A stretch of 64,000 nt of DNA, taken from positions 144,818 through 208,817 of the forward strand of contig JAYNZW010000001.1 in assembly GCA_038103905.1 (NCBI GenBank), in the 5' to 3' direction. Below the pieces are notes generated by a model. That model ran no database searches and was not told where the DNA came from. It worked only from the letters and a program-made list of their open reading frames with translations. Source of the stretch: Pelagibacteraceae bacterium. GTDB lineage: Bacteria > Pseudomonadota > Alphaproteobacteria > Pelagibacterales > AG-422-B15. Each line of letters opens with the position of its first letter. Position 1 is the first letter of the stretch. Both the position numbers and the translations under genes were made by a program. This document shows, one piece after another, positions 39,599 through 64,000 of the stretch.

Positions 39599-39606
39599 TT
39601 TTGCCT

Positions 39607-40992: not shown

Positions 40993-42008
40993 AGTGTCTT
41001 ACCTCTAAACAGTCCAGTAGGGCGAATAACTAAAACTATAACTAATATTATGAATGAAATCGCAAATTTATAATCAGTTGATAGGAATTGCATTAATCCA
41101 CTTGGTTCTAAATTACTTGGTAGTAAATACATAAAAAACTTTTTATACGCATAAGTGAGCATAACTTCTGAAAAGGCTATAATATAACCACCAGCTACAG
41201 CACCTAATGGATTACCTATTCCCCCTACGATTGCTGCAGCAAACATTGGAAGCAATAACTGAAAATATGTAAATGGTTTAAAGCTTTTATCCAGGCCATA
41301 CAAGACACCCGCAATAGTAGCTAGCATACCAACAATTATCCATGTAATCATAACCACTTTGTTAGGATTTATACCTGATAAAAGTGCAAGATCTTCATTA
41401 TTAGAATAAGCCCTCATTGACTTGCCCATTTTTGTTTTTTGTAGGAAATAAAATAATATCACCATGGTAATTAACGCTATCACAATGGTTAAAACTTGAG
41501 TTGACTTAATGCTAAGTCCTTCAGAAAGACCAGTGTATGCTTTAAACTCTACGGCCTTAATAATAAACTTCTCACCGTCAAAAAAAGTTCTATCTTTTGG
41601 ACCTATTATGAATCTAACAATTGCATTCATAATAAACATGACGCCTACAGACACAATCATGAATACAACCGGCTGGCTTTTTTGTTCTCGATAAAATTTA
41701 TAAACAATTTTATCTGTAATTAAACAAAAAGCAGCAGTTAGTCCCATAGCAAAAGGTAATGCAATCAGAGCCGTTGGAAGCACACCAGCTGTTATGCCCC
41801 ATGACTGAAATAACCATGTTATAAGTATGGCTATCATTGTTCCAAATGCCATTAGGTCACCGTGAGCAAAATTTGAAAATCTAAGAACTGCATATACAAG
41901 TGTTATGCCAAGTGCCGCTAGCGCTAACTGCGAGCCATATGATAAAGCTGGAACAATTACAAAATTTGATAAGAGAATTAATGCATTAATTAAGTCATAA
42001 TTTTCCAT
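40989..42008 (-). CDS. livH: Branched-chain amino acid ABC permease LivH
   Basis: 339-aa polytopic protein with a typical LivH N-terminus (NALILLSNFVI ... YGSQLALAALG). Confidence 0.85.
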   Translation of the reverse strand: MENYDLINALILLSNFVIVPALSYGSQLALAALGITLVYAVLRFSNFAHGDLMAFGTMIAILITWLFQSWGITAGVLPTALIALPFAMGLTAAFCLITDKIVYKFYREQKSQPVVFMIVSVGVMFIMNAIVRFIIGPKDRTFFDGEKFIIKAVEFKAYTGLSEGLSIKSTQVLTIVIALITMVILFYFLQKTKMGKSMRAYSNNEDLALLSGINPNKVVMITWIIVGMLATIAGVLYGLDKSFKPFTYFQLLLPMFAAAIVGGIGNPLGAVAGGYIIAFSEVMLTYAYKKFFMYLLPSNLEPSGLMQFLSTDYKFAISFIILVIVLVIRPTGLFRGKTL

Positions 42009-42010
42009 AC

Positions 42011-42718
42011 TTATCCGCCTAAAAATGCTTTTCTAACTTCAGTGTCATTTAAAAGTTCTGAGCCTTTACCTGTGAACTTGTTTTTTCCAGCAACTAAAAC
42101 ATACCCATAATCAGCAATATTCAGAGCCTGTTTAGCATTTTGTTCAACAATTATTATTGCAACCCCTGTCTTTTTAATATCGATAATCTTATCAAAAAGT
42201 TCATCCATCACGACAGGTGAAACCCCAGCGGTCGGCTCATCAAGCATCAAAACGTTTGGACGCGTCATCAATGCTCTTCCGACAGCTACTTGTTGTCGCT
42301 GACCGCCAGATAATTCTCCAGCAAGTTGCTCCTTCTTTTCATCAAGAATAGGAAAAAGTGAATACATTTCTTCAAAGGTTTCGCTGAGATCATCATCTCT
42401 TAGATAGGCGCCCATTTCTAAATTTTCTTTAACAGTTAATTCATTAAATATATTCATTGTTTGAGGGACAAATGATATCCCTGAGGCAACTCGATCTTGA
42501 GGCGATAGATTAGAAATGTTTTTCCCATCTAAAAATACTTTACCTTCACTTAATTGTAACATGCCTAACATTGCTTTCATTGCTGTTGACTTTCCAGCTC
42601 CATTGGGTCCCACAATTACCGAAATTTCTCCTTTATTAACGGAAACACTACAGTCGTTAAGAATATTTTCACCACCATATCCACCGACTAAGTTTTGGGA
42701 ACAAAAAAAATCACTCAT
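42011..42718 (-). CDS. livF: Branched-chain amino acid ABC ATPase LivF
   Basis: Walker A GPNGAGKST, signature LSGGQRQQVAVGRAL, Walker B LMLDEPT. 235 aa. Confidence 0.88.
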   Translation of the reverse strand: MSDFFCSQNLVGGYGGENILNDCSVSVNKGEISVIVGPNGAGKSTAMKAMLGMLQLSEGKVFLDGKNISNLSPQDRVASGISFVPQTMNIFNELTVKENLEMGAYLRDDDLSETFEEMYSLFPILDEKKEQLAGELSGGQRQQVAVGRALMTRPNVLMLDEPTAGVSPVVMDELFDKIIDIKKTGVAIIIVEQNAKQALNIADYGYVLVAGKNKFTGKGSELLNDTEVRKAFLGG

Positions 42719-43479
42719 ACTGCGCCACTTCTTCCAAGATAAGCAGAAATTACTTCTTCATTTTTTTTGATATCTTCAATCTTGCCTTCTGTTAGAATCT
42801 TGCCTTCTGACATTACTATGACTTTACTACAAAGCTTGCTAATGAATTCAATGTCATGCTCAATCATACAAAATGTATAACCTTTTTCTTGATTGAGTTT
42901 TAATATAACTTCAGCAATCTCGTTTAGCAGAGTCCTGTTAACGCCTGCTCCAACCTCATCCAGTAAAACAATATTTGCATCAACCATCATTGTTCTTCCA
43001 AGTTCTAATAATTTTTTTTGACCACCTGATAGGTTACCAGCCAGTTCATAAGTAAGATGTGATAAATTCAGAAATTCAATGACCTCAATAGCCTTTTCTT
43101 TTATTTTTTCTTCTTCTTCTTTTATTTTTTTTCTATTTATCCACGCATTCATTAATTTTTCACCAGATTGAAATCCAGGAACAACCATTAGATTTTCAAG
43201 AACTGTTAATTTTGAAAATTCATGTGCGATTTGAAATGTTCTTAATATTCCTTCATAGAATAATTGATGAGATGGCAGTCCAGTAATATTCTTTTTTTTA
43301 AAGTGTATCGTTCCACTTGATGGTTCAATGCTTCCACATATTACGTTGAATAGAGTTGTTTTACCCGCACCATTTGGCCCGATTAGTCCCGTTATTGAGC
43401 CTTGTTCAATTTCTAATGACACACTATCTACAGCATGAATACCACCAAATTGTTTACTAAGATTCTTTATTTCAAGCAT
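42715..43479 (-). CDS. livG: Branched-chain amino acid ABC ATPase LivG
   Basis: Walker A GPNGAGKTT, signature LSGGQKKLLELGR, Walker B VLLDEV. 254 aa with a LivG-type insertion. Confidence 0.88.
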   Translation of the reverse strand: MLEIKNLSKQFGGIHAVDSVSLEIEQGSITGLIGPNGAGKTTLFNVICGSIEPSSGTIHFKKKNITGLPSHQLFYEGILRTFQIAHEFSKLTVLENLMVVPGFQSGEKLMNAWINRKKIKEEEEKIKEKAIEVIEFLNLSHLTYELAGNLSGGQKKLLELGRTMMVDANIVLLDEVGAGVNRTLLNEIAEVILKLNQEKGYTFCMIEHDIEFISKLCSKVIVMSEGKILTEGKIEDIKKNEEVISAYLGRSGAV

Positions 43480-49874: not shown

Positions 49875-51032
49875 TTACCTCCTGAATGTTCTGTAAATAG
49901 AAATTACTAAAAAAATAAATGTGAAAGAGGTAATTGTGTATATAAAGCCCATTGGACCAACTATATCCATTACTCTGCCACCAATAAGAGGTCCAATTAA
50001 CGAGCCGACCTCAAAAACCATTACTAGAATCGCTGTTGCTCCTGCAACCTGTGAAGCGCTGTAGCGCTCACCTAACATTGTAAGCGAAATAGCAAAAATT
50101 CCACTTGCTGCGCCACCCCACATAAAACAACTAATTGCCATTATATAAAAATTATTAATAAACAGCGCAAATATGATTGGGCATATAAAAGTGATTAAAA
50201 CAGCAGTATTCATGAGAAGTCTCTTATTCATTTTATCGAGTAACACACCAATGATGGGCTGGCAAATTACACCTCCTACCAAAGTGATGGTCACATATTG
50301 CAAAGCTAGATCTTGAGAAAAATTACTTTTAATCATGAAGATCGGAAAAAATGAAACAAACATAACATCATCTAAGCCACATAAAATAGCTGCTCCAAAT
50401 ATTGTAGGTGCAGCAATTATTGCAGCAAATACAGGAAGAGATTTTTTTTCAGGCAATTTAGGATCATCAATTTTAATTGTAATTAGTGGTATTATTGCAA
50501 GGAAAGATAGGGCTGAAATCACAACAAAAGGGAACCATCCCTCAATACCAGTGAGTGAAATTACCATTGGTCCAATTGCAAAACCAATTACAAAAACAGT
50601 ATTATAAATTGTTACTATCTTACCTCTGTTACTATCATTAGCCATAGATAGCATCCATGTATCAAATGCATTCCAAGCTAATGCTCCAGCAAATCCAATC
50701 AAAAATCGAATTAGGAACCAAGATGTTAAACTTTCAAAAATAGGAAATGTGAAATATAGAAGTATTGTAAATATTTGAGCTATGACGATGGATCGCGCTA
50801 ATCCAATTTTATGAATGATGATTGGCGTTATTCTTACAAATAAAATAACAGCCAGCGGTTGTGCAACAACGTTTAAACCAATTTCTGTATTTGAATATCC
50901 TCGTGATTCAAGAATTAGTGAAAGCAGTGGTATTAATGTTCCAAGCTTTATTCCTATTATGAGGGCACATAAAAAAAGAACAAGATATGTTTTATATTGG
51001 TTTCCTAAATATGATTGAACTACAGATGTCAT
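49875..51032 (-). CDS. MFS transporter
   Basis: 385 aa with about 12 helices. It lies downstream of, and overlaps by 4 nt, the TetR gene. Confidence 0.8.
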   Translation of the reverse strand: MTSVVQSYLGNQYKTYLVLFLCALIIGIKLGTLIPLLSLILESRGYSNTEIGLNVVAQPLAVILFVRITPIIIHKIGLARSIVIAQIFTILLYFTFPIFESLTSWFLIRFLIGFAGALAWNAFDTWMLSMANDSNRGKIVTIYNTVFVIGFAIGPMVISLTGIEGWFPFVVISALSFLAIIPLITIKIDDPKLPEKKSLPVFAAIIAAPTIFGAAILCGLDDVMFVSFFPIFMIKSNFSQDLALQYVTITLVGGVICQPIIGVLLDKMNKRLLMNTAVLITFICPIIFALFINNFYIMAISCFMWGGAASGIFAISLTMLGERYSASQVAGATAILVMVFEVGSLIGPLIGGRVMDIVGPMGFIYTITSFTFIFLVISIYRTFRR

Positions 51033-51676
51033 TGGAACTTTTCTTCATTTGGATAGATATTTCTGAAATATTTAATGATTAAGTTCCTACAAAATTCATT
51101 AGTATATATTTTTGGATCAAACAAGATTCTTTGCCATAATCCGTCGACCATTGAATGATATGTTTCACTAATTTCAATTGCGCTTAAAGAATTTTGATTT
51201 GTTTTAGAATTTATCTTATCAATAAGTTTTTCCATTTGATGAAGATATATTTCATCTTGTTTTTGACATATGGATAGATATGATGGCCTAAATTTTACTT
51301 CACTATAAAATGCGATCCAAACTGATATTTTGTTCCGATTAGCAATTTTTTTACTAAAATCATTCTCACAAATTTTAAGCAACCTTTCAATGGGATCTAA
51401 ATTCTCATCCTCAAATATTTTTTGCCAAGATTTTTTATATTCATCAGATAGAAACTGAAGAGAGCTCAGTAATAAATTTTCTTTTGATTTAAATCTAAAA
51501 TTTGCATATCCCTGTGACACTTTGGCTTTTTTGGCAACATGTGAGATTGTTGTGTCCCCAAGGCCTCTTTTAGCAATTGTTTCAATTGTCGCATCAATAA
51601 GTTTCTGATGATTTATAGAAATTTCACTACTTTTTTCATTTGATGTTTCTGTTTGTTTTTGACTTACTGCAATCAT
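51029..51676 (-). CDS. TetR/AcrR-family transcriptional regulator
   Basis: N-terminal HTH GLGDTTISHVAKKAKVSQGYANFRFKSKENLL. 215 aa. Divergent from the flavoprotein operon. Confidence 0.88.
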   Translation of the reverse strand: MIAVSQKQTETSNEKSSEISINHQKLIDATIETIAKRGLGDTTISHVAKKAKVSQGYANFRFKSKENLLLSSLQFLSDEYKKSWQKIFEDENLDPIERLLKICENDFSKKIANRNKISVWIAFYSEVKFRPSYLSICQKQDEIYLHQMEKLIDKINSKTNQNSLSAIEISETYHSMVDGLWQRILFDPKIYTNEFCRNLIIKYFRNIYPNEEKFQ

Positions 51677-51721
51677 GACAATTTAAAGAATATACAAAGA
51701 TCTCTCTCAAGGATAGTTTTG

Positions 51722-51741
51722 TATTGAATAATCATTCAATA
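51722..51741. promoter_or_regulatory. Candidate TetR operator in the divergent promoter region
   Basis: TATTGAAT-aatc-ATTCAATA, an 8-4-8 perfect palindrome centred between the TetR start (51676) and the start of the first flavoprotein gene (51775). Confidence 0.55.
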
Positions 51742-51774
51742 TTGTTATCATATATATAAATTTTTGTAAGTTTT

Positions 51775-53403
51775 ATGCCAAAAAATACGCATGATATTAT
51801 TGTTGTTGGGGCAGGTCATAACGGGCTAACTGCAGCTAGCTATATGGCAAAAGCTGGCCTCGATGTTCTTGTTCTTGAGAAAAATGAATGGATTGGCGGA
51901 GCCGCTGTAAGCCGAGAATTATTTCCAGGATGGAAGTATTCAAACTGTTCTTATGTTTGTAGTTTGTTAAGGCCAGAAATCATGAGAGATCTTGAACTGT
52001 ATAAGTACGGGTTACAAATTATTCCTTATGAAGGAAGTGCAACAATGATGAGGAATGGCGATTATTATGCTCACTATCACGATCATGATATGACAATTAA
52101 TTCTATAAGACGTCATTCTCATAAGGATGCAGAAGCGTATGAGCGATATAGTAGGGATGTACTTAGACAATGTAAAATTATCAAACCTTTGTTAAAGATG
52201 ACACCTCCCGACCTAACTTCATTTAAACCAAAAGATCTTTTTGGAGCATTAGAATTTGCTAAACACTTTGCGGCAAAAGATGAACTAGGTGGTCTAGGTG
52301 AAAAAGAAATTTATGATACGATAAGATTCTATACAATGAGTATTCGGGATTATCTCGATGAGTATTTCGAAAGTGATATTACAAAAGCCCACTTAGCAGG
52401 TAGTGCAATTATTGGTACTGCTTTAGGGCCATGTTCACCGGGCTCTGCTTATGTTCTACTGCATCATTATATGGGTGAGGTTGATGGATCAGTTGGATCA
52501 TGGGGTTACTCGAGAGGTGGAATGGGTTCTATAACAAAAGCGATGATGGGCTGCTTAAATGATCATGGAGGTGAGGTTAAGCCAAGTAGTGAAGTCACAA
52601 ATGTTATTGTTAAAAATGGTAGAGCAATCGGTGTTGCTACTAAAAATGGTGATGAGTATTACGCAAAAAAAATTGTATCTAATTTAGATGCAAAAAGAAC
52701 CTTCTTAAAGATAACTGAAGAAAAATCTCTTCCAGAAGACTTTGTTGAAAGAATTAAAAATTTTAAAATTAGAGGATCCTCAGGAAAACTAAATATTGCT
52801 CTAGACGGACTTCCAGATTTTCCTTGTATTCCTGAAGGTGATCCAGGAGGCGGTGGAGATATGCATTTCACTGAGTCCATTGAGGAAATGGAAGGAGCTT
52901 ATGACGACTGGAAAAGAGGTCAATGGTCAAGAAATCCTTATGTAGATATGTGTATACCATCAAAAAGTGATCCTACGATGGCTGCTCCAGGTAAACATTA
53001 CATGTCAGTATTTATTCAATATGTACCATTCAATTTGGCAAATGGAGGATGGAATGAAGAAAGAAAGCAAGAATTTGGAAGACATATTGTTGATTGCATA
53101 TCTGAGTTTTCTCCAAACTTTAAAGATTTAATTAATCACTATGAAGTGAGAACTCCAATGGACTTAGACAGTGAGGTTGGATTAACTGAAGGAAATATCT
53201 TTCAAGGTGAATTAACAATGGACCAACTCATGTTCAATCGCCCTGTTCCTGGTTACGCACAATATCGTACTCCATTAAAAAATATGTATATTTGTAGCTC
53301 ATCTACTCATCCTGGAGGTGGCGTAATGGGAGCACCTGGTGCAAATGCAGCGCGTGAAGTTCTTCTTGATATGAAAATGCCTCAAAAAGGAAATTACTAC
53401 TAA
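51775..53403 (+). CDS. FAD-dependent oxidoreductase, CrtI/COG1233 (PYROXD2-like) superfamily, paralogue A
   Basis: Dinucleotide fold IIVVGAGHNGLTAA...LEKNEWIGG, then GSWGYSRGGMGS, and C-terminal THPGGGVMGAPGANAA. 542 aa. Confidence 0.8.
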   Translation: MPKNTHDIIVVGAGHNGLTAASYMAKAGLDVLVLEKNEWIGGAAVSRELFPGWKYSNCSYVCSLLRPEIMRDLELYKYGLQIIPYEGSATMMRNGDYYAHYHDHDMTINSIRRHSHKDAEAYERYSRDVLRQCKIIKPLLKMTPPDLTSFKPKDLFGALEFAKHFAAKDELGGLGEKEIYDTIRFYTMSIRDYLDEYFESDITKAHLAGSAIIGTALGPCSPGSAYVLLHHYMGEVDGSVGSWGYSRGGMGSITKAMMGCLNDHGGEVKPSSEVTNVIVKNGRAIGVATKNGDEYYAKKIVSNLDAKRTFLKITEEKSLPEDFVERIKNFKIRGSSGKLNIALDGLPDFPCIPEGDPGGGGDMHFTESIEEMEGAYDDWKRGQWSRNPYVDMCIPSKSDPTMAAPGKHYMSVFIQYVPFNLANGGWNEERKQEFGRHIVDCISEFSPNFKDLINHYEVRTPMDLDSEVGLTEGNIFQGELTMDQLMFNRPVPGYAQYRTPLKNMYICSSSTHPGGGVMGAPGANAAREVLLDMKMPQKGNYY

Positions 53404-54917
53404 TGTCTGATATGCAATATGATGCCATTATAATTGGCGGAGGTCATAACGGACTTGTTTGCGCAAATATTCTTGGTAAAAAAAATAAAAAAGTTTTAGT
53501 TTGTGAAGCCCGTGAAAATTGTGGGGGCATGGTTAATCATGAAATTATCAATTATGTTCCATCTGTTCCAAATAGCGTAAGCCAATCAATTGGTGGATTA
53601 AATCTTAAGTATATTCCAAAAGGCACTATTGCTCTCTCAGAATCTGGTAAACACATTCGACTTATTGGAAATTTACACTTGGACCATGCTACGATCGCGA
53701 AGTTCTCAACGCAAGACGCTGATCGATACCTTGAGTTTCATGACAAGATGTCTCAGTTCTCAAAAACGCTTGGCAAATTCATGTTGGATTCACCTCCAAG
53801 AATTATGAATAATAATTTTTCAGATTATGCAAAATTATTCAAGCTAGGTTTGAACGTGAGAATGCTTGGCAAAAAAAGATTTAACGAGTTTGCAAGAATG
53901 ATCGGTTTAAATATAGCTGATGAACTTGAGGATAATTTTGAGAGTACTCTGCTTCAAGGACTTATTGCTCATGATTCTGTTTTAGGTTCAAACTTAGGAG
54001 CAAGATCACCTGGTTCATTGATTAACTTATTGTATAGAATGGCTGTTCATGGCAACTCACTTTTTGGTGGTATCTACGAAATGGAAGGTGGATCTGAGTC
54101 ATTTATTTCTGCTCTTTTAGAAAAATGTAATAGAAATAGCGTTGAAATAAAAACATCTGCATCTGTAAAAAATTGTTTAATTGAAGATGATAAAGCAGTT
54201 GGTGTTGAATTACATAATGGCGAAAAATTTTTTGGAAAAACAGTAATTTCAAATGCTGATCCTAGATCAACATATCTTTGTTTACTTGGTGCTCAAAATC
54301 TTGATACGGATGTTAAGAGAAGAATTAAACATCACCGGTCAAAAGGGCGTGTCGCAAAGCTTTCACTTGAACTAAAACAAATGCCAGAATTTAATGATTG
54401 TGACATTGAAGATCTAAACAGCAGAATGGTGGTTTCTCCTTCTATTGATTATATTGAGGAAAATTTTAACCCAAGCAAATTTGATAAATTATCATCTGAG
54501 CCAGTTCTTGAGATCTGTTTAAAAAAAGATAAAGACAGCAATCCTTCTTTGGATATTCAGGTTCAATATGCTCCCTACAGAGCTCATGGTGGTTGGGAAA
54601 ATATTAAAGAAGACTATGTAAACTCAATTATAAAAATTTTATCAAAGTACTCTTCAAACATTGAAAGCTGTATTGAAAGTAAAACATTTATCACTCCAGA
54701 TGATATAGAACAAAATTATCATGTTTCAGGGGGACATTGGCATCATGGAGAAATTCAAATTGATCAACTATTTATGCTTAGACCTATTCCTGGGGCAGCA
54801 CAGTATAGGACTCATTTAGATGGTCTTTATTTGTGCGGTGCTGGAGCTCATCCAGGTGGAGGAATGCATGGAATTTCTGGGAAAAATGCTGCCAAAGTTG
54901 TTCTGGGAGATCTATAA
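53403..54917 (+). CDS. FAD-dependent oxidoreductase, CrtI/COG1233 superfamily, paralogue B
   Basis: IIIGGGHNGLVCA...EARENCGG and C-terminal AHPGGGMHGISGKNAA. 504 aa. The start overlaps the stop of paralogue A (TAATG). Confidence 0.8.
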   Translation: MSDMQYDAIIIGGGHNGLVCANILGKKNKKVLVCEARENCGGMVNHEIINYVPSVPNSVSQSIGGLNLKYIPKGTIALSESGKHIRLIGNLHLDHATIAKFSTQDADRYLEFHDKMSQFSKTLGKFMLDSPPRIMNNNFSDYAKLFKLGLNVRMLGKKRFNEFARMIGLNIADELEDNFESTLLQGLIAHDSVLGSNLGARSPGSLINLLYRMAVHGNSLFGGIYEMEGGSESFISALLEKCNRNSVEIKTSASVKNCLIEDDKAVGVELHNGEKFFGKTVISNADPRSTYLCLLGAQNLDTDVKRRIKHHRSKGRVAKLSLELKQMPEFNDCDIEDLNSRMVVSPSIDYIEENFNPSKFDKLSSEPVLEICLKKDKDSNPSLDIQVQYAPYRAHGGWENIKEDYVNSIIKILSKYSSNIESCIESKTFITPDDIEQNYHVSGGHWHHGEIQIDQLFMLRPIPGAAQYRTHLDGLYLCGAGAHPGGGMHGISGKNAAKVVLGDL

Positions 54918-56117
54918 ATGAATAGTGATTTAAGATTTTCAGCTTTAAAGAAAACGCCATTTCATTCAAGAACGAGCTTAGCTTCGCGAACAAATAAATG
55001 GTACACGTGGAATGGTTTCACTGTCCCTACAGAATATTCGACTGTAGAACTTGAGTACACTGCTGCTAGGAATGGAACTTCTGTAATGGACTTAACTCCT
55101 ATGGGTAAGTACGAAATAACAGGAGATGATGCACATCTTTTTGTTGATTATTTAGTTACAAGGGATTTGTCTGAGATGAAAGATAATACAGTTGCATATA
55201 TTATATGGTGCAATGAAGATGGAAAAGTTCTTGATGATGGAACAATATTTAAATACTCATCAAAAAAATTTATGCTTTGTTGTGCTGTAAAAATTTTTAA
55301 TTGGTTAAATGATTCTGCAGAGGGATTTGATGTAGGAATCAAAGATGTAACAGATACAATTGCCGCTCTTTCTTTGCAAGGTCCGACATCTTGTTCAACT
55401 CTTAAAAACTATGGAGCACATGATTTAGAAACACTAGCTCCATTTGAAATGAAACAATTCACTATAGATGGATACAACGTTTTAATTTCTCGTACTGGTT
55501 TCACAGGAGATCTAGGATATGAAATATGGACTGATCCTGAAAACGCCGAGTCAGCTTGGGATAGTATTTTTGAAGCTGGTAAGCAACTTAAAATCAGGCC
55601 ATTTGGAATGCATGCTTTAGATATGACAAGGATTGAAGCAGGATTTATTCAAACCAATACTGATTTCATGGCTGCAGAGGATGCATTAAGACCAGTAAGA
55701 ATGAGATCACCATATGAAATTGGAATGGGGTGGCTGGTCCATTTTAAAAAGAAAAATTATTTTGTTGGTAAAAAAGCACTTAAGTTAGAAAAAGAAAAAA
55801 GTACAACTGAGAGGTGTCTAGTGGGTCTCGATATAGACGGAGACAAGCCAGCACATGGCTCTGTTATCTATAATGAAAAAAAAGAAGATATTGGAATCGT
55901 GACTGCTGCAATGTGGAGTCCGACAATGAAGAGAAATATTGCTTTAGCTTCATTAAAGCGTCCCTACGGCATTAAAATTAAAGATAATATATTTGCAGAA
56001 ATCTATCATCCTGAAGAAATTGAATATCGTAAAATTTGGGCTAAATGTAAGGTTGTAAAGAGACAATTTTACAACCCTGAAAGAAGAAATAAGGTCCCCG
56101 CAGACCTATATGAATAG
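54918..56117 (+). CDS. Stand-alone GcvT-like (aminomethyltransferase-fold, folate-binding) protein
   Basis: TPFHSRT...EYTAARNGTSVMDLTPMGKYEITGDDA, then LSLQGP and SRTGFTGDLGYEIW. 399 aa. The ATG directly follows the upstream TAA. Confidence 0.8.
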   Translation: MNSDLRFSALKKTPFHSRTSLASRTNKWYTWNGFTVPTEYSTVELEYTAARNGTSVMDLTPMGKYEITGDDAHLFVDYLVTRDLSEMKDNTVAYIIWCNEDGKVLDDGTIFKYSSKKFMLCCAVKIFNWLNDSAEGFDVGIKDVTDTIAALSLQGPTSCSTLKNYGAHDLETLAPFEMKQFTIDGYNVLISRTGFTGDLGYEIWTDPENAESAWDSIFEAGKQLKIRPFGMHALDMTRIEAGFIQTNTDFMAAEDALRPVRMRSPYEIGMGWLVHFKKKNYFVGKKALKLEKEKSTTERCLVGLDIDGDKPAHGSVIYNEKKEDIGIVTAAMWSPTMKRNIALASLKRPYGIKIKDNIFAEIYHPEEIEYRKIWAKCKVVKRQFYNPERRNKVPADLYE

Positions 56118-56142: not shown

Positions 56143-56167
56143 TTCAATTATTGAACAGCCATTCAAT
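56143..56167. promoter_or_regulatory. Second cluster of ATTGAA/TTCAAT half-sites upstream of the interrupted transaminase
   Basis: TTCAAT-t-ATTGAA palindrome (56143-56155) plus an ATTCAAT repeat (56161-56167). The half-site is the same as in the 51722 palindrome, but the spacing differs. Confidence 0.35.
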
Positions 56168-56184
56168 TTGAGGTATAATGACTC

Positions 56185-57588
56185 ATGCCAAAATCAACAC
56201 CACAAACGCCGACGAAAGAATTGCTCAACACTCTCGATGATCGAATATTGCACCCATGGCAATATTTAGAATATCGAGGCGAGGATGATCGAACATTCAT
56301 TGATAAGTCTAATGGAATTTATCTTTACGATAAAACAGGAAAAAAACTTATCGATGGGCCAGGGGGGATGTGGAATGTAAATGTTGGTCACGGTGTTAAA
56401 GAAATAGCTGATGCTGTTTATGAGCAGATTACTAAGATGCCTTACGCTAGTCCGTTTACTGAGTCTACAGAAATAGCTCACAATTATGCTTCTAGGCTTG
56501 TAAAATATGCTCCTGGTGATTTAAAAAGAGTTTTTTTCACTTCTGGAGGATCATCTGCTGTTGACTCAGCCTTACGTTTTGTCATGTTTTATAACAATGT
56601 ATGTGGACGTAGAGAAAAAAAACAAATTATCTCAAGGCATGATGCCTATCACGGTAGTACTTTTTTAGGAGCCTCTTGCTCTGGTAAAGAACGCGACAAA
56701 AATAATTTTGATTTTGCGACAAATATAGTTCACCATATTTCATCACCTAACCCTTTCCGTAAACCTGATGATTTAACTGATGAAGAATTTTGTGATTTAA
56801 AGGTTAAAGAATTGGAGGATAAGATTTTAGAGATAGGACCTGATAAGGTTGCAGCTTTTATTGCTGAACCAATTTTAGCATCAGGTGGTGTAATTGTTCC
56901 ACCTAAAGGTTATCAAAAAAAGACACACGCAGTTTGTAAAAAGTATGATGTACTTTACATCTCTGATGAGATTGTGACGGGTTTTGGAAGATTAGGCCAT
57001 ATATTTGCATCAGAAAATTATTTTGATTTTACTCCAGACATTATTCTCCTCGCAAAGGGAATTACATCTGGCTATGTTCCATGTGGTGCTGTTGTTATTT
57101 CAGAAAAGCTAATGTCACAATTAGATAACAAAGAGAAAGTTATATTTTCTAATGGATTCACTGACTCCGGCCATCCAGTGAGTATGGCCGCGGCTACTGC
57201 AACTTTAGATTACATGGAGAAAACCAACTTATTAGACCATGTGAAGGAAGTAGGTCCATATTTTCAAAGTAAACTAAGAGAATTAACCGACCTTCCAATT
57301 GTTGGCGAAGTAAGGGGAGAAGTATTAATGTCAGCAGTAGAATGCGTTTGAAATAAAGATAAAAAATACCCACTTAATTTGTCATATGAAATAGTTTCAA
57401 GAATAAATGAGCATTGTCAGCAATTAGGATTAATTGTTAGACCTTTATTCAGCACTTGTGTGATGTCACCATCACTTATCATTACAAAGGAACAGGTTGA
57501 TGAGCTTGTTACTATTTTGAGAAGAGGAATTGAGCTTGCAACTGATGATATCAAAAAAGAAGGTCTTTGGTCATCATCTGCGAATTAA
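56185..57588 (+). pseudogene. Class-III aminotransferase interrupted by one in-frame TGA (57349-57351)
   Basis: The track ORFs 56185-57351 and 57379-57588 are in the same frame. Joined, they give a 467-codon protein colinear with the paralogue at 48076 (GGMWNVNVGHG, FFTSGGSSAVDS, DEIVTGFGRLG, LLAKGITSGY, then ...GLIVRPL...SPSLIIT). Confidence 0.8.
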
Positions 57589-58826
57589 TGAGCTCATTCA
57601 ATCAATACAAAAAAAGCTATCAAGAAGGCAAAACACTTCCTCAAGATTTTTATACTGATGAGAGTATTTTTTCTGAAGAAATGAAGCAAATTTATTTTAA
57701 ACAATGGCTAATGGTCGACCATGTTAGCCGTATTCCTAACCCAGGTAATTATTTTGTTTTTGAAGCCGAGAAAGAATCAATAATTGTAATTCGTGGAAGA
57801 GATAATGTGATTAGGGCCTTTTATAATGTCTGCACTCACCGAGGCTCGAGAATTTGCCTTGACGAAGAAGGTTCAAAAAAACTCTTAGTGTGTCCTTATC
57901 ATGCGTGGAGCTTTTCTGCAGAGGGCGAGTTAAAAGCTGCCCGATATATGCCAGATGATTTTAAGCTCGAGGAACATGGACTAAAGAAGTGCCATATCAA
58001 AATATATGAAGGATTAATTTTTATAAATCTCTCTCTTGACGATCCAATGGATTTTGATGATTTTATGTCACCATTAAAGGAGTTAGTCAGTTTTCATGGT
58101 ACGGGAAAGTCTAAAATTGCTGCTCGAAAAAAATATCCAACAGACGCTAACTTCAAATTAGTTTTAGAAAATTTTCAAGAATGCTATCATTGTGGCAATG
58201 CGCATCCAGAACTTAGTTCAGTTCATGAAAAAGATTGGGTCTATACAATGGGAGCCGGACTGGGTACAGCGCCTCAAAAAGATACAGATGAATATTTAAA
58301 AAAAATAGGTCCTTGGATTGAAGAATGTAAAAAACAAGGAACACCATCTGAAACTTATTTAGAAACTGAAGAAGGTCTTAAAAGAGGTTTAAATCGTTAT
58401 GTTGACCGCACTCCGATTGGGAATGGACATCTATCACAAACGAAAAATGGCAAACCAGCTTCAAAAATTATGGGAAAATTTAAGGATTTTGATGGAGGAT
58501 TATCACAAGTCAGCTTCAACCCATTTAGTTGTTGTTATCTCACTAATGATTTTGGCATCATGTTTGTTTTTAAACCTAATTCAATCTTAAAATCAGAAGT
58601 AGAATTAATTTGGCTCGTTAGTGAAGATGCTAAAGAGGGTCGAGATTATAATACAGACGATGTTACATATATTTGGGATATAACAACACAAGAAGACACA
58701 ACAATAATTGAAAACAATCAAAAAGGTGTTCTTTCACAATCTTTTACACCAGGTGTACTATCTCAGAACGAGTCAGCAGTTACATATTTTTATAATTGGT
58801 ATTTTACCAATATGCAGCTACCATAA
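57588..58826 (+). CDS. Rieske non-haem-iron oxygenase alpha subunit (GbcA/CntA/Stc2-like)
   Basis: Rieske ligands CTHRGSRIC-x..-CPYHAWSF (CxH-x17-CxxH) and mononuclear iron motif ENFQECYHCGNAHPE. I prefer ATG 57588 (TAATG overlap) over the track TTG at 57567. Confidence 0.82.
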   Translation: MSSFNQYKKSYQEGKTLPQDFYTDESIFSEEMKQIYFKQWLMVDHVSRIPNPGNYFVFEAEKESIIVIRGRDNVIRAFYNVCTHRGSRICLDEEGSKKLLVCPYHAWSFSAEGELKAARYMPDDFKLEEHGLKKCHIKIYEGLIFINLSLDDPMDFDDFMSPLKELVSFHGTGKSKIAARKKYPTDANFKLVLENFQECYHCGNAHPELSSVHEKDWVYTMGAGLGTAPQKDTDEYLKKIGPWIEECKKQGTPSETYLETEEGLKRGLNRYVDRTPIGNGHLSQTKNGKPASKIMGKFKDFDGGLSQVSFNPFSCCYLTNDFGIMFVFKPNSILKSEVELIWLVSEDAKEGRDYNTDDVTYIWDITTQEDTTIIENNQKGVLSQSFTPGVLSQNESAVTYFYNWYFTNMQLP

Positions 58827-58841
58827 TCTTAGAGCACCTTC

Positions 58842-60197
58842 ATGAAGCAATTGTATGATAAAGCAATATATGATTTTAGTACGCCAATTAAGAGCTACTG
58901 GGAAGAAATAAGTCATTTTGATCAGAGTCAATTTCCAAAATTAGTTGGTGACCAATCTTGTGATGTATGTGTTATTGGTGGCGGCTTCACTGGAATAAGT
59001 ACAGCATATCATATAGCAAAAAATTATGGAGGGGATGTTAGGCTTCTTGAGGCTGGACATTTTGGATTTGCAAGTAGTGGAAGGAACGCAGGATTTTGCT
59101 GCCTTCCAGCAACAAAATTATCAATTAGCCAATTGATTAAAAAGTTTGGAATGGATGAAACTAAAAAGTTTTTTGCTTCTCAAATTGAAGGAGTCGATCT
59201 TTTAGCATCATTAATCGCTGATAATAATATTGAGTGTGAAAAAGTTGGTACAGGAAATCTTGATGTGGCTCATCATCCAGATAGTAGTGAAGAATTAAAA
59301 GAGTGGGGAAATGATTTAAAAAATTATTTTGGAATTAATACGCGATGGATTCCAAAAGAAGAGTTTGATGAGACAGGGCATCAATCAACAGAACAATTTG
59401 GTGCAGTGTTTACAGAAGCTGGATTTGCAATGAATCCAATGGCATTTTTGGATGGATTTGCTCATGCCGCAGTCAATATTGGCGCTAAACTACATGCGCA
59501 TTCGAGAGTCAAAAAATGGGAGAGAAATGGAAAGCACAAACTAATAACTGAAGATGGTTCATTGACTTGTGATAAAGTTGTAGTTGCTACAAACGGTTAT
59601 ACAGATGAGTCTTTACATTCAAGTTTTGCAAATAGGATGGTTCCAGTTCTATCAAATATTATTGTTACTAGAGAGATGAGTGAGGATGAGTTTAAAATGC
59701 AAAATTATAAAACTTTGAATCCAATCTGTAACTCTAGAGAGATTTTATATTATTACCGCAGGATGCCGTCTAATAGAATGCTTTTTGGAACCCGAGGTGA
59801 CACATTTGGCGATGAAAGAAGTGCTCTTAAAATGAGAGAAATTATGACAAAACAATTTAGAGGAGTATTTCCCAATTGGAATGAAATTGATATTGAGCAT
59901 TATTGGAGAGGAACAGTGGTTATGACTCGCGATCTTGTTCCTGCCTTTGGTAGCCTTGAAAATGATAAGACCGTATTTTTTTCATATGGCTATCAAGCAA
60001 ATGGAAATAATACAACTGTTTACTGTGGAAAAAAATTAGCTGAGATGATTTATGAATCGAATAGTGGTGAAACAAATATTTCAAAAGTATATCAAGGCCT
60101 ATCTCCAAAAATTCCTTTTGGCTTTCTTAGATTATGGTATCTCAGAATTTATCTCTGGTACTCTAGATTTACAGATAAAAGCAAAAAAGAGATTTAA
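58842..60197 (+). CDS. FAD-dependent oxidoreductase (DAO family), gamma-glutamylputrescine-oxidase PuuB-like
   Basis: The N-terminus is colinear with PuuB: SYWEE...CDVCVIGGGFTGISTAYHIA...LEAGHFGFASSGRNAGF. 451 aa. Confidence 0.72.
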   Translation: MKQLYDKAIYDFSTPIKSYWEEISHFDQSQFPKLVGDQSCDVCVIGGGFTGISTAYHIAKNYGGDVRLLEAGHFGFASSGRNAGFCCLPATKLSISQLIKKFGMDETKKFFASQIEGVDLLASLIADNNIECEKVGTGNLDVAHHPDSSEELKEWGNDLKNYFGINTRWIPKEEFDETGHQSTEQFGAVFTEAGFAMNPMAFLDGFAHAAVNIGAKLHAHSRVKKWERNGKHKLITEDGSLTCDKVVVATNGYTDESLHSSFANRMVPVLSNIIVTREMSEDEFKMQNYKTLNPICNSREILYYYRRMPSNRMLFGTRGDTFGDERSALKMREIMTKQFRGVFPNWNEIDIEHYWRGTVVMTRDLVPAFGSLENDKTVFFSYGYQANGNNTTVYCGKKLAEMIYESNSGETNISKVYQGLSPKIPFGFLRLWYLRIYLWYSRFTDKSKKEI

Positions 60198-60234: not shown

Positions 60235-61119
60235 ATGTTGAACTTGTGGCGAAAATTATATGTAAAAAGTGAAATTATCAGAGCTTATTCACTTCTTTCA
60301 CCAGCTTTAGTTCTTGTTATTTTAGCCATGGCTGTTCCTATGGGACTTATGTTGAGTTTTAGCATGTTTACTCAAGTCAGCATGATGGAAATCGATTATA
60401 CTTTTACATTTCAAAGATATATTGATTTTTTTCAAAAAAATTTATTGGTCACACTTTTAATTAAATCAATTAAAATATCATTTCTTGTAACTCTTATCAC
60501 TCTCGTAACAGCATACCCTGTTTGTTATTACATCGCTTTTTATGTTAAAAAAAATAAAATGCTGTGGCTTGTTTTACTTACTCTACCATTTTGGACATCT
60601 TACTTATTAAGAGTATTTTCTTGGAAGATTATTCTTGGAACAAAAGGAGTAATAAACTCTTCACTAATGAACGCTGGAATCCTTAGTGAACCCCTTACAT
60701 TTCTAATGTATTCAGAGACTGCAGTAGTTATTACTTTGACTCATGCATGGGCAGCCTTTGCATTATTACCATTGTATGTTTCACTAGAAAAAATTGATTT
60801 TTCTCTTATTGAAGCTGGAAGAGATCTTGGCTTATCTCGATTTGAAGTTTTCTGGAAAATTACTTTTCCATTATCATTGCCTGGAGTGATTGGTGCAATT
60901 TTAATTATATTTATCCCAACAGTAGGTGATTATGTCACCCCAGCTTTACTTGGCGGAACTGATGGTCGTATGTTATCTAATATGATCCAGGCTTACTTTG
61001 GGAAAATAAATAACATTCCTCTTGGAGCAGCATCGGCAACTATAATGCTAGCAACTGTTGCTATTATAACAATTATTGTTTCAAATGTAACAAAGAGACT
61101 GACACAAAGGCTAACGTAA
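60235..61119 (+). CDS. Polyamine-type ABC permease (PotB/PotH-like)
   Basis: Six helices and the EAA loop IEAGRDLGLSRFEVFWKITFPLSLPG. Confidence 0.82.
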   Translation: MLNLWRKLYVKSEIIRAYSLLSPALVLVILAMAVPMGLMLSFSMFTQVSMMEIDYTFTFQRYIDFFQKNLLVTLLIKSIKISFLVTLITLVTAYPVCYYIAFYVKKNKMLWLVLLTLPFWTSYLLRVFSWKIILGTKGVINSSLMNAGILSEPLTFLMYSETAVVITLTHAWAAFALLPLYVSLEKIDFSLIEAGRDLGLSRFEVFWKITFPLSLPGVIGAILIIFIPTVGDYVTPALLGGTDGRMLSNMIQAYFGKINNIPLGAASATIMLATVAIITIIVSNVTKRLTQRLT

Positions 61120-61121
61120 AG

Positions 61122-61931
61122 ATGAACGAAAAAAATAATACACTACTGATATATACTCTTCTTTATTTTGGTTTTTTATATGTGCCAGTTTTATTCTTGC
61201 CTATATTTAGTTTTAATGATGCAAATTATATGTCATTTCCACTAGCTGGATTTACAACAGAACATTATGAAGAGATGTGGTCAAAAAGAAATCTTCACAA
61301 AGCCTTATGGGCTAGTATAAAAGTTGGAGTTGTTGCAAGTGTAGTTAGTACAACTATCGCTCTTTTCGCTGCAAAGGCCTTTGCTCGTTATAAGTTTAGA
61401 GGACAGAAGATTTCTTATGGTGCAATTATGATGCCATTTTTAATTCCTGAGATCATTTTAGCTGTAGCTATATTAATCATCTGGGTCAATCTTGGCTTTA
61501 AATTAGGCCTAGTACCAGTGACAATTGGACATACTTTATTTTGTACGCCATTTGCAATGTTAATATTAATAGCTCGTATTGAAGGATTTGACTTTTCTCT
61601 TGAGGAAGCTTCAAGAGATCTAGGAGAAAATGCATGGGGTACATTTTATAGGGTATCACTTCCGCTATATTTACCCGGGATAGTTGCAGCTCTTCTTCTG
61701 AGTTTTATAATTTCATTTGATGAGTTTATTCTTGCATTCTTCTTGACAGGTAGTGATGCGACACTGCCTATGTATATGTGGGGTCAAATGAGATTTGTCC
61801 AAAAATTACCACATGTGCTGGCATTAGGAGCAGTAATAATTGTGTTTACTACTTTGATTGTTTTGTTAGCATTCTGGTTGAGAAATGTTGGCCAAGGAAA
61901 AGGAAAGAAAGATATAGCTATAAAAATATAA
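61122..61931 (+). CDS. Polyamine-type ABC permease (PotC/PotI-like)
   Basis: EAA loop EEASRDLGENAWGTFYRVSLPLYLPG. 269 aa. Confidence 0.82.
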   Translation: MNEKNNTLLIYTLLYFGFLYVPVLFLPIFSFNDANYMSFPLAGFTTEHYEEMWSKRNLHKALWASIKVGVVASVVSTTIALFAAKAFARYKFRGQKISYGAIMMPFLIPEIILAVAILIIWVNLGFKLGLVPVTIGHTLFCTPFAMLILIARIEGFDFSLEEASRDLGENAWGTFYRVSLPLYLPGIVAALLLSFIISFDEFILAFFLTGSDATLPMYMWGQMRFVQKLPHVLALGAVIIVFTTLIVLLAFWLRNVGQGKGKKDIAIKI

Positions 61932-61937
61932 AAGATT

Positions 61938-63020
61938 ATGAACAACTCATTTATACAAATTAATAATATTTCAAAACATTTTGCAGATGTTAAGGCAGTT
62001 GATGATGTTTCATTTGAAATTAAAGAAGGTGAATTCTTTTCACTTTTGGGACCCTCTGGTTGTGGAAAAACAACTTTGTTACGACTCTTAGCAGGATTTG
62101 AATACCCAACTTCTGGTAATTTATTAATTGATGGAATAGATATTACTGCGCTACCTCCAGATAAAAGACCTACAAATATGGTTTTTCAGAATTATGCTAT
62201 TTTTCCTCATTTGAATGTTGAAAAAAATATTCAATTTGGATTGAGAAAACTTGGCTTAAGTAGCGATGAAATAGAGAAAAGAGTAAAAGATGTTTTATCT
62301 CTCGTGAAGCTTGAAGGATATGAGGAAAGATTTAGTAATCAATTATCTGGAGGTCAAAGACAGCGTGTCGCGCTTGCAAGAGCTCTAGTAAGGCAACCAA
62401 AAGTACTTTTATTAGACGAGCCTCTTGGTGCATTAGATAAAAAGTTAAGAGACGAAATGCAGCTAGAATTAAGAACTCTACAGAAAAATATTGGAATTAC
62501 TTTTGTATTTGTAACTCATGATCAACAAGAAGCTATCAGTATGTCGGATAGAGTAGCAGTAATGAATAATGGAAAAATTCAACAACTATCGGCACCAAAT
62601 GATCTTTATAAGAATCCAGAAAATATATTTGTAAGTGATTTTATTGGTGAAACGAATTTTCTTAAAGCTGAAACGAAATTAAGTGATGGTGAATTTATCA
62701 GTGTTTCAATTGAAGAATTAGGTGAGTTCAAAATTAAAAATAATTTAAATATTTCAGCAAATTCTACAGATGTTGTATGTAGCGTTCGCCCGGAATCAAT
62801 GATGATTTCTAAAGTAAAATCAGACTGGGATATTTGTCTTGATGCTAAAATTAAACAGACTTCATATTTAGGTGAGATGACTAGATTTTATGTAGAAGCA
62901 AAAGGAATTGATAAGATCATCACTGTTTCTTCACAGCATTTCGATAATCAATCCTTTGAAAATAACGAATGCTTTATAAGTATGAGTTTAGAAGATATTT
63001 CTCTATTAAATAAAAAATAG
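61938..63020 (+). CDS. Polyamine-type ABC ATPase (PotA/PotG-like)
   Basis: Walker A GPSGCGKTT, Q-loop FQNYAIFPHL, signature LSGGQRQRVALARAL, Walker B LLLDEPL, and a C-terminal TOBE-like domain. Confidence 0.88.
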   Translation: MNNSFIQINNISKHFADVKAVDDVSFEIKEGEFFSLLGPSGCGKTTLLRLLAGFEYPTSGNLLIDGIDITALPPDKRPTNMVFQNYAIFPHLNVEKNIQFGLRKLGLSSDEIEKRVKDVLSLVKLEGYEERFSNQLSGGQRQRVALARALVRQPKVLLLDEPLGALDKKLRDEMQLELRTLQKNIGITFVFVTHDQQEAISMSDRVAVMNNGKIQQLSAPNDLYKNPENIFVSDFIGETNFLKAETKLSDGEFISVSIEELGEFKIKNNLNISANSTDVVCSVRPESMMISKVKSDWDICLDAKIKQTSYLGEMTRFYVEAKGIDKIITVSSQHFDNQSFENNECFISMSLEDISLLNKK

Positions 63021-63071: not shown

Positions 63072-64000
63072 TCAACCGCCAGCAACCATTTCAGCCCACT
63101 GAGCTTCCATGTAGTCTGTTACTTCGTCTGAAGGCATAACTGAGAACATTCCATTTGAAAGGTGTTCTGCAGGATTTGATGCTACTCCACGTTCAGCAAG
63201 TTCATCAGCAGTAATAGTGCTAAAGCCTTTTCTATTCGAATGACCATAACCCCACTCACTTAATAAGTAAGCTGAAGTTTCAGCACTAGTAGCTCCATTA
63301 ATCATTGCATATGCTTTATCAAGGTCTGCACCTTTAACAATCGCAAGTCCGCATGCCCACGTCATTGTACCATTAGCAGGCTGCATCATTTTTGCTCCAG
63401 CATTCCATGCAATTTCGTTCCATCCAAGAGCTACGTCTATTTCTTCATTACCCAATGCTTCTACCATTGAAGATGTATCTCCAAAGAAAGCACGGATTTG
63501 TCCGTTGTCTCTCATTTCACGGAACTTGTTGATTGCTTTATCAATAGCAGCTTTTGTTAACTGATCTTTTTCTCTAATATCAATTCCAAGGTGATGCATC
63601 ATCAAAAATAATGAGTCAGCAGCTGAGTCAAGTATTCCAACTTTACCTTTAACTCTTGGATCTTCCATTAGATCAAAGCTTTCGTTATCTGCATTCATCC
63701 AAGTAACTCGATCAGGCATATAAAACAAAGTTGTGTCACCCCAATCGATTGGTGCAAAATAATTTTGGCCATTAACGATACCACTTGGTAAGTCTCTGAC
63801 TTCAGGGAACATATCGTCCCAGTTGTCAATTCTAGAAGTATCAAGCGGCTGAAGCACTCCAGCTCTCACCCAACGAGCGATCTCACCTTGGCAAGGCCAA
63901 GCTAAGTCAACTTCAAAACCAGCTTTTAATTTTTGTAATCCTTCTTCAGCATCACCGAATGTTGAATATTCAGGTGAGCCATGTTCTTCTGCGTATGTTC
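63072..64000 (-). CDS. Family-1 extracellular solute-binding protein, PotD/PotF-like (N-terminus beyond window end)
   Basis: The reading frame stays open upstream of the track start (63869) to the window edge: ...TYAEEHGSPEYSTFGDAEEGLQKLKAGFEVDLAWPCQGEIARWVRAGVLQPLD.... The layout is typical of PotD/PotF. Confidence 0.75.
   Translation of the reverse strand, partial: TYAEEHGSPEYSTFGDAEEGLQKLKAGFEVDLAWPCQGEIARWVRAGVLQPLDTSRIDNWDDMFPEVRDLPSGIVNGQNYFAPIDWGDTTLFYMPDRVTWMNADNESFDLMEDPRVKGKVGILDSAADSLFLMMHHLGIDIREKDQLTKAAIDKAINKFREMRDNGQIRAFFGDTSSMVEALGNEEIDVALGWNEIAWNAGAKMMQPANGTMTWACGLAIVKGADLDKAYAMINGATSAETSAYLLSEWGYGHSNRKGFSTITADELAERGVASNPAEHLSNGMFSVMPSDEVTDYMEAQWAEMVAGG

Follow-up and report, generated by a model that had tools for sequence, protein, structure and literature searches.

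The window analysed here, a stretch of 64,000 nt from a Pelagibacteraceae contig with a G+C content of 32.8%, carries three tightly packed genes that encode two flavoproteins, A and B, and a free-standing GcvT-like protein, T. We propose that A, B and T together constitute a tetrahydrofolate (THF)-coupled, flavin-dependent oxidative N-demethylase of a new architecture, acting on a secondary or tertiary methylated amine, and we assign this reading a probability of about 60%. Folate-coupled oxidative N-demethylation is itself known, whereas the architectures described so far do not include a PYROXD2/CrtI-like flavoprotein pair combined with a T protein of its own gene. The initial annotation had taken the trio for a candidate THF-linked amine oxidase or N-dealkylase, which is supported by the sequence comparisons from which we infer the enzymology. 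Three findings that would have spoken against it were looked for, namely placement of the flavoproteins within carotenoid families, loss of the gene order in related genomes and identity of T with the canonical glycine-cleavage protein, and none of them was obtained. The case is built on what can be directly observed, namely the gene structure, the protein families, the synteny, the overlapping junctions, the conserved operators and the relationship to PYROXD2.

The genes for the TetR protein, A, B and T were found in the open reading frame (ORF) listing at the coordinates, strands and lengths first given for them (Table 1). The stop codon of A and the start codon of B share one base (...tac TAATG tct... 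at 53401-53405), and the TAA of B is followed without a gap by the ATG of T (...cta TAA ATG aat... at 54915-54920). A and B are diverged paralogs with 28% identity over their full length (E=2e-70), each with an N-terminal GxGxxG and a C-terminal HPGGG motif, and T is a free-standing GcvT-type protein with Pfam matches to GCV_T (203 bits) and GCV_T_C (46 bits). The gene layout, the junctions, the paralogy of A and B and the GcvT-type nature of T had been read correctly from the letters alone. In the public databases, the exact proteins are labelled "amine oxidase" (A), "hypothetical protein" (B) and "aminomethyltransferase" (T), and the public annotation gives no specific function for the trio.

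The conservation of the unit was examined in a scan with one genome per species, in which at least 595 species were found to have a relative of A. The best 80 of these loci, with 59-94% identity to A, were used for the analysis of gene context (two pairs are the same contig seen twice), and the 72 loci with at least 2.9 kb downstream of A were considered informative for gene order. The 80 loci span the Pelagibacterales, Kiloniella, Mesorhizobium/Rhizobium, Steroidobacteraceae, Halieaceae, Porticoccaceae, Woeseiaceae and Burkholderiaceae/Comamonas. A is followed by B and then by T on the same strand at every informative locus (72/72), and the gene order is thus kept across the Alpha-, Beta- and Gammaproteobacteria. 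Moreover, the stop of A overlaps the start of B by 1-20 nt at 65 of 77 loci, and B and T overlap or lie no more than 5 nt apart at 52 of 73 loci, both of which are consistent with translational coupling. Because A has thousands of close homologs in the protein search and the gene order is kept throughout the informative loci, the association of the three genes is far beyond chance.

The three proteins are unevenly conserved, with A at a mean pairwise identity of 68%, T at 54% and B at 48%. The paired arrangement reaches beyond the group of A orthologs, since a relative with only 47% identity to A (L087:304-2144) has its stop codon overlapped by the gene for a B-like GGGHNGL flavoprotein (MAKDRVLVIGGGHNGL...). 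Such close packing and co-inheritance is the pattern to be expected of subunits that are made in fixed proportion, short of proof of a complex. The exact A protein is present on 42 contigs, some from Tara samples, and its 90% cluster contains 754 members. Carriers in culture include Kiloniella laminariae DSM 19542, several Mesorhizobium strains, Peteryoungia aggregata and Lentisalinibacter orientalis.

A and B belong to the CrtI/flavin amine oxidase fold superfamily. Both proteins pass the Pfam gathering threshold of 19.8 bits for Amino_oxidase (PF01593; 48.6 bits for A and 37.9 bits for B) as well as the threshold for NAD_binding_8. When compared with the models for the characterised carotenoid families, they fall outside all of them, with scores for A and B of 90.2 and 83.5 bits for crtI_fam (cut-off 238.1), 76.8 and 85.4 bits for the CrtD models (cut-offs 500-580) and 291.8 and 187.3 bits for CrtO (cut-off 1000), which is the best curated model for both. 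Judged by these scores, A and B are not carotenoid enzymes. The structure in the PDB that is nearest to A by sequence is CrtI, at only 57 bits, and the nearest named relative is PYROXD2, at 387 bits. The match to the DAO family in Pfam is confined to the Rossmann segment in both proteins (residues 7-47, the first ~41 residues), and the soxB model yields 31.8 bits against a cut-off of 529. The CrtI/COG1233 label in the initial annotation therefore holds for the fold superfamily, and the two proteins are better described as members of a PYROXD2-like subfamily.

Monomer models made with AlphaFold2 have predicted local distance difference test (pLDDT) values of 84 for A and 87 for B. In Foldseek, the best folds for the model of A are CrtD (4rep, template modelling (TM) score 0.74) and then CrtI (4dgk), and after the carotenoid desaturases come NicA2, MAO-A/B and putrescine oxidase. 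The TM scores of these matches range from 0.54 to 0.74 at no more than 18% identity, with a probability of 1.00 for 4rep, 4dgk, NicA2 and MAO. Since the matches span both desaturases and amine oxidases, the modelled fold would allow amine-oxidase chemistry and leaves the question undecided. A is presumed to be the catalytic subunit with flavin adenine dinucleotide (FAD). An apparent fusion of A and B with a length of 904 aa (P0099) was located on a 2x long-read contig in which the neighboring genes are also fragmented, and was treated as a frameshift artefact. The "general amine oxidase" of strain HTCC1062 is SAR11_1304, a DAO-family protein and not a homolog of A.

The third protein in the unit, T, looks like a working folate protein, because it aligns end to end with GcvT from T. 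maritima (1woo) and with the folate domain of Tdm (9q59, 169 bits), and because the motifs DDGT, SRTGxTGDLGYE and RxEAG are invariant in 71 orthologs. These motifs presumably include the catalytic Asp and the folate-contacting residues of T proteins, which we take as a lead only. In NCBIfam, T is matched best by the C-terminal half of the trimethylamine N-oxide (TMAO) demethylase (274 bits, model positions 377-722 of 763), and the folate domains of SoxA, DMGDH and DMGO match at 82-92 bits. We also considered the possibility that T is the canonical T protein of the glycine-cleavage system. Its scores are below the cut-offs for the GcvT equivalogs TIGR00528 (174 vs. 235.85), PRK00389 (239.5 vs. 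300) and PRK13579 (127.8 vs. 459), as well as for the DmdA model (142.5 vs. 410 bits). T always follows A and B (72/72 loci) and never accompanies gcvH or gcvP. Neither carotenoid genes nor gcvH or gcvP were identified among the annotated ORFs in the window outside ~18-29 kb, nor among the recurrent neighbors of the 80 related loci, and the initial annotation was thus right in noting that carotenoid genes are not found nearby. By its scores and by the genes with which it travels, T is not a glycine-cleavage T protein, although both GcvT domains and the motifs are present. There is a precedent for a free-standing GcvT protein that serves an N-demethylase, which is DmmD of the dmmDABC system (PMC5520151).

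The closest named relatives of A are the mitochondrial PYROXD2 proteins of mammals. These were obtained by a protein-database search with a PYROXD2 sequence, which returned named, authentic PYROXD2 proteins. A is 38% identical to mouse PYROXD2 (P0224) over its full length (E=5e-133), while B is 27% identical. Among the 171 positions in A that are at least 97% invariant in 82 orthologs, 101 are identical in mammalian PYROXD2 and 49 are kept in B. The motifs GAGHNGL, YVLLHH, GGMG, GNIF and HPGGGVMGA are common to A and PYROXD2. B has kept the FAD motifs, whereas YVLLHH and E/G-GNIF of A and PYROXD2 are replaced by an invariant motif of its own, GGHWHH. This motif sits in a loop that is of low confidence in both monomer models, and the region may become ordered when a substrate or a partner binds. 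In an exhaustive search of 1.84 billion representatives, 2098 relatives were recovered at E<=1e-30.

PYROXD2 is a mitochondrial protein with a function that is "little known," and biallelic variants of the gene cause a severe infantile disorder (PMC8777681). The human locus has been associated with trimethylamine (TMA), dimethylamine (DMA), N6-methyllysine, N2-acetyl-N6,N6-dimethyllysine and N-methylpipecolate (PMC3169529; PMC8109053; PMC13352909). In the literature that could be searched, we found no paper connecting PYROXD2 or related bacterial proteins with a folate protein or assigning a reaction to them, and no characterised system in which a COG1233 or phytoene-dehydrogenase-like protein is joined with a GcvT or aminomethyltransferase protein. 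One hypothesis is that all members of the PYROXD2-like subfamily are flavin N-demethylases for small methylated amines, with the A/B/T unit as the ancestral folate-coupled form; we put this forward tentatively and regard it as doubtful in its full breadth.

The suggestion that the trio is controlled by a TetR repressor is supported by a conserved predicted operator upstream. The TetR gene is divergent from the trio, as first described, and its product matches TetR_N (39.8 bits) and TetR_C_6, the BetI type (43.3 bits), in Pfam. The cut-offs for the BetI equivalogs are not reached (97.3 vs. 118 and 95.6 vs. 201.3), and by score the repressor would be a BetI-type TetR protein rather than the choline-responsive BetI proper. 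The operator arms are only 6-7 nt long, which is under the length threshold of the inverted-repeat search, and the palindromes were found by eye and then by a pattern search. The TTGAAYNNNNRTTCAA pattern has two matches in 64 kb, compared with an expectation of 0.13, and the palindromes share the consensus TTGAAY-N4-RTTCAA. They are the only sites in the window, one located between the TetR gene and A and the other just upstream of the downstream transaminase gene, and both coincide with promoter-like -35/-10 sites, which are consensus matches only. The related pattern TGAAYRNTYRTTCA is located ~50-300 bp ahead of A, or ahead of a transaminase gene on the upstream side of A, at 35 of 85 loci from several classes, and it also precedes transporter or transaminase genes in some loci. 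At one locus (L008), the equivalent palindrome is found just upstream of the transaminase gene.

Table 1. Features of the A-B-T unit and its surroundings, with positions in the 64,000-nt window.
Feature	Position	Strand	Remarks
TetR gene, BetI-type	51029-51676	-	215 aa; divergent from the trio
Operator-like palindrome 1, TTGAATAATCATTCAA	51724-51739	.	left half coincides with a -35-like hexamer in the promoter-like site at 51724-51751
Flavoprotein A, PYROXD2-like	51775-53403	+	542 aa
Flavoprotein B, diverged paralog of A	53403-54917	+	504 aa
GcvT-like folate-binding protein T, free-standing	54918-56117	+	399 aa
Operator-like palindrome 2, TTGAACAGCCATTCAA	56151-56166	.	overlaps a promoter-like site at 56151-56179
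Class-III (omega) transaminase	56185-57588	+	in-frame TGA at 57349-57351
Rieske non-haem-iron oxygenase, Stc2/GbcA/CntA group	57588-58826	+	Rieske and Ring_hydroxyl_A domains
DAO-family FAD amine oxidase or dehydrogenase	58842-60197	+	DAO 186 bits
PotB-, PotC- and PotA-type ABC permeases and ATPase	60235-63020	+	homologs in 50-57 related loci
PotD/PotF-family periplasmic binding protein	63072-64000	-	runs past the window end; frame open to 63998

The surroundings at 46-64 kb had been described as amine-catabolic genes mixed with Pot-type transport genes, and the family matches confirm this description. The genes in this region encode a PuuD-like hydrolase, an acyl-CoA dehydrogenase, two class-III transaminases, a GNAT protein, an MFS transporter, a Rieske oxygenase, a DAO-type oxidase, PotB/C/A proteins and a PotD/F-type binding protein. 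In the related loci, the most recurrent neighbors are the class-III transaminase (59 loci), the PotA-type ATPase (57), the TetR protein (52), the permeases (50-51) and the Rieske oxygenase (45). The Rieske oxygenase scores 307 bits against the GbcA model (cut-off 670) and matches 3n0q (247 bits), the stachydrine demethylase Stc2 (3vca, 227 bits) and the carnitine monooxygenase CntA (146 bits) in the PDB. The Stc2/GbcA/CntA group consists of quaternary-amine N-demethylases and monooxygenases. The DAO-type oxidase occurs in only 8 of the related loci, and in NCBIfam it is matched best by L-pipecolate oxidase (160 bits, below the cut-off).

The class-III transaminase (Aminotran_3 249 bits, PRK07036 554 bits), which we regard as a functionally linked neighbor of the trio, contains an in-frame TGA, after which the frame remains intact for another 78 codons to a TAA at 57586-57588. 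The position corresponds to Gly in the closest relative (L006) and to Ile in more distant relatives, and the TGA may be a single-base nonsense change, a sequencing error or the result of recent pseudogenisation. The stop codon of this gene overlaps the start of the Rieske gene in a TAATG at 57586-57590, the same type of junction as between A and B, and because of this overlap the Rieske gene probably starts at 57588 and not at the listed TTG at 57567.

The binding protein matches PotF and PotD in the PDB (~E=1e-16), a search that returned PotF/PotD relatives only and no SAR11_1336 structure, and exact look-ups of the binding protein and the Rieske protein gave no match. Binding proteins of the PotD/F type in the related loci form two clusters, in 32 and 23 loci, respectively. 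The substrate is probably imported by the Pot-type ABC system. However, the SAR11 "PotD" protein SAR11_1336 binds glycine betaine and dimethylsulfoniopropionate (DMSP) (PMC11485210), and for this reason the Pot-type label does not establish a polyamine as the substrate. The only start codon listed for the binding-protein gene within the window is an internal GTG at 63869. The protein is 96% identical to a protein of 366 aa at the L008 locus, whereas A at that locus is only 73% identical, which indicates that the transporter genes are much more conserved than the enzyme genes between these two genomes.

In several Steroidobacteraceae loci (L012, L017 and others), A-B-T is located near genes for a 3HCDH+4HBT protein and a small HD-domain protein (e.g., L017:16744-18237 and L012:3197-3790). 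A long ORF in the same clade (L011:3841-5559) matches both the C-terminal domain of BetI-type TetR proteins and the Rieske domain and may be a merger of two genes. The genes that vary from clade to clade also include a GntE/HemL-like transaminase and a second amine oxidase.

Taken together, we propose a pathway in which the Pot-type ABC system would import an N-methylated cationic amine. If this is a quaternary amine, the Stc2/GbcA-type Rieske oxygenase would take off the first methyl group, after which A/B/T would remove the remaining methyl group or groups. In this process, A would oxidise the N-CH3 group to an iminium, with B most likely attached to A as a diverged partner that binds FAD and is obligatory, while T would trap the one-carbon unit on THF as 5,10-methylene-THF with no release of free formaldehyde. 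The resulting primary amine could then be taken over by the class-III transaminase. The BetI-type TetR repressor is predicted to bind to the TTGAAY-N4-RTTCAA operators over the promoters of both the A-B-T unit and the transaminase-led unit. The genes and their context are our basis for inferring the chemistry, the involvement of THF, the heteromer and the sequence of pathway steps, and likewise the substrate and the electron acceptor. No one compound explains all of the accessory genes, and several candidate substrates were considered and set aside for want of specific support. These are the N-methyl or N,N-dimethyl forms of GABA, beta-alanine, putrescine, ethanolamine, taurine, 2-aminoethylphosphonate and lysine, as well as dimethylglycine, sarcosine and dimethylamine.

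Several findings weigh against this reading or against its extension to PYROXD2. No fusions of A and B, B and T or A and T are present among the top 120 homologs of A or B, and folD, purU and other folate-recycling genes are absent from the recurrent neighbors. The clade-specific extras are diverse and include a PuuC/BADH-like ALDH, an ADP-forming acyl-CoA synthetase, an acyl-CoA dehydrogenase, GS-like enzymes, a carnitine-dehydrogenase-like 3HCDH+4HBT protein, an HD-domain protein and a SAM methyltransferase. Since the accessory genes vary by clade in this manner, no single substrate emerges. Furthermore, four bacterial proteins (P0364, P0367, P0373 and P0380) are 45-46% identical to mouse PYROXD2 and 39-43% identical to A. 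Because some bacterial relatives are thus closer to PYROXD2 than to A, the comparisons place A as a member of the PYROXD2-like subfamily and not demonstrably as an ortholog of PYROXD2. Of three loci considered from other PYROXD2-like clades, only one, with a PYROXD2-closer protein, is informative, and it contains no GcvT gene; the other two contigs are too short for context, one of them with a gene for a B-like partner. At L088:1890-2204, a gene for a CoxS-type [2Fe-2S] small subunit, and not one for a GcvT protein, comes after that for a bacterial protein with more similarity to mammalian PYROXD2 (46% identity) than to A, and this hints that other PYROXD2-like clades use different partners. 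Finally, the link between PYROXD2 and methylated amines is a statistical association and not enzymology.

The same chemistry could also be achieved without a heteromer, if A and B are sequential demethylases that share T and convert a tertiary amine to a secondary and then to a primary amine, mirroring the order of DMGDH and SARDH in the catabolism of glycine betaine. Consistent with such an arrangement, B has lost none of the FAD motifs and carries an invariant motif of its own in the active-site region, GGHWHH, in place of the EGNIF of A and PYROXD2, each of the two proteins is predicted to fold confidently as a monomer, and the full demethylation of a tertiary amine would need two steps before the transaminase. 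However, the overlap of A and B at 65 of 77 loci and the finding that A never occurs without B (72/72) are more typical of stoichiometric subunits. The unequal conservation of A (68%) and B (48%) fits a catalytic and an accessory subunit better than two equivalent enzymes, and the relative with 47% identity to A also has a B-like gene that overlaps its stop. We therefore consider sequential enzymes unlikely, though worth keeping in mind, and favor A and B as partners. If A and B were instead a polyamine or secondary-amine oxidase that cleaves off larger N-alkyl groups, as in the C-N oxidation of spermidine or acetylpolyamines, T would have a secondary role in the detoxification of formaldehyde or other aldehydes or in acting on an aminomethyl intermediate. 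The fold is that of Amino_oxidase enzymes, and the Pot-type ABC system, the PuuD-like hydrolase, the GNAT protein and the SpuC-like transaminase, along with PuuA- and PuuC-like genes in other clades, would all fit this scenario. To our knowledge, however, polyamine oxidations release no one-carbon unit, and the strict linkage to T is therefore left unexplained. The Rieske enzyme that accompanies the trio falls among the quaternary-amine demethylases, and the SAR11 "PotD" protein binds betaines, not polyamines (PMC11485210), which makes a polyamine oxidase improbable in our view.

More distant from the proposed demethylase is the idea that T is a DmdA-like methyltransferase that transfers a methyl group from a sulfonium or other onium compound directly to THF, with A and B in an unrelated redox step on the product. 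T does match DmdA at 142 bits, and SAR11 transporters of this type take up DMSP (PMC11485210). The scores of T are nevertheless higher for Tdm (274 bits) and GcvT (239 bits) than for DmdA, with its cut-off of 410, and T is always preceded by A and B, which would be left without a role. DmdA works without a flavoprotein partner, and we judge this explanation to be very improbable. Lastly, A and B could be carotenoid or isoprenoid desaturases or ketolases that have come to adjoin a housekeeping glycine-cleavage T protein by chance. The CrtO ketolase is indeed the best curated model for both proteins, CrtD and CrtI are the best structural matches, and T has both of the GcvT domains. Yet the scores stay far under the cut-off for every carotenoid and GcvT equivalog, the window lacks crt, gcvH and gcvP within the scope given above, the synteny of A-B-T with amine-catabolic genes is retained at 72/72 loci, and the regulator is of the BetI type. 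This explanation is contradicted by both scores and context, and we give it hardly any credence.

The remaining part of the window contains amtB genes, a Liv/Urt-type ABC system and housekeeping genes. Two tandem AmtB paralogs (31829-33106 and 33293-34561) are located upstream of the Liv/Urt-type ABC system (38387-43479), and with the amine genes included, this half of the window forms an island for nitrogen scavenging. Between them, at 35701-37367, is an overlapping pair of umuD-like (Peptidase_S24) and umuC-like (IMS/Y-family polymerase) genes, an error-prone-repair cassette in a SAR11-type streamlined genome. A protein of 817 aa (29242-31695) has a partial match to DUF3604 (residues 490-623) as its sole Pfam match.

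The operon is present in SAR11 and many other abundant Proteobacteria, where it sits inside nitrogen- and amine-scavenging islands. If our hypothesis is correct, it represents a route in the marine cycling of methylamines, nitrogen and one-carbon units that has so far not been counted. Should the broader hypothesis about the subfamily also be true, this would be a route for the demethylation of secondary and tertiary amines in marine and soil Proteobacteria, which could include the dimethylamine step in SAR11, and human PYROXD2 would be the demethylase behind the associations with N6-methyllysine, dimethyllysine, N-methylpipecolate and TMA/DMA. The operon context thereby provides a concrete functional hypothesis for a human mitochondrial disease gene, and since there are carriers in culture, the hypothesis is directly testable.

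The proposed mechanism is similar in principle to that of the heterotetrameric sarcosine oxidase SoxABGD and of DMGDH and SARDH, in which a flavin oxidises the N-methyl group and a folate domain with the GcvT fold traps the one-carbon unit. The combination of a catalytic flavoprotein, a Rossmann-type partner and a T module would also resemble the logic of SoxB and SoxA. However, the flavoproteins in those enzymes belong to the DAO family, whereas A and B are CrtI/PYROXD2-like, and their T module is fused, whereas T in the A-B-T unit is free-standing, strictly co-inherited and encoded in close packing or overlap with its neighbors; the trio is not accompanied by recognisable SoxD- or SoxG-like genes. 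The DmmDABC system is more similar in that a free-standing GcvT-domain protein is encoded in an N-demethylase operon, and DmmD has been proposed to load the one-carbon unit that is set free onto THF (PMC5520151). Unlike A and B, DmmABC is not a CrtI-like flavoprotein pair, and no DmmABC-like neighbors were recognised at the trio. SAR11 bacteria do not have dmmDABC, and the missing enzyme for dimethylamine has been described as a metabolic bottleneck (PMC5520151). Tdm contains the C-terminal folate domain that is the best curated match to T, but its catalytic N-terminal module is metal-dependent, has no flavin and is fused to the T domain.

Mammalian PYROXD2 is similar to A over the full length and shares its invariant motifs, but it is mitochondrial and has no known B or T partner. 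CrtI, CrtD and CrtO have the same fold and the same N- and C-terminal FAD motifs as A and B; they differ in that their carotenoid context is absent at the trio and in that the identity to the PDB structures is only 17-18%. The closest analogy at the level of a pathway may be the catabolism of stachydrine (Stc2/StcD) and glycine betaine (GbcAB, DgcAB, Sox), where, as we propose for the trio, a Rieske oxygenase is found beside a flavin demethylase together with a betaine-type regulator. By this analogy, the pairing suggests a stepwise demethylation of a quaternary amine. The demethylase of the second stage belongs to another family in those pathways, and while they lead to proline or glycine, the pathway proposed for the trio ends with a transaminase, which would imply a primary amine as the end product of demethylation.

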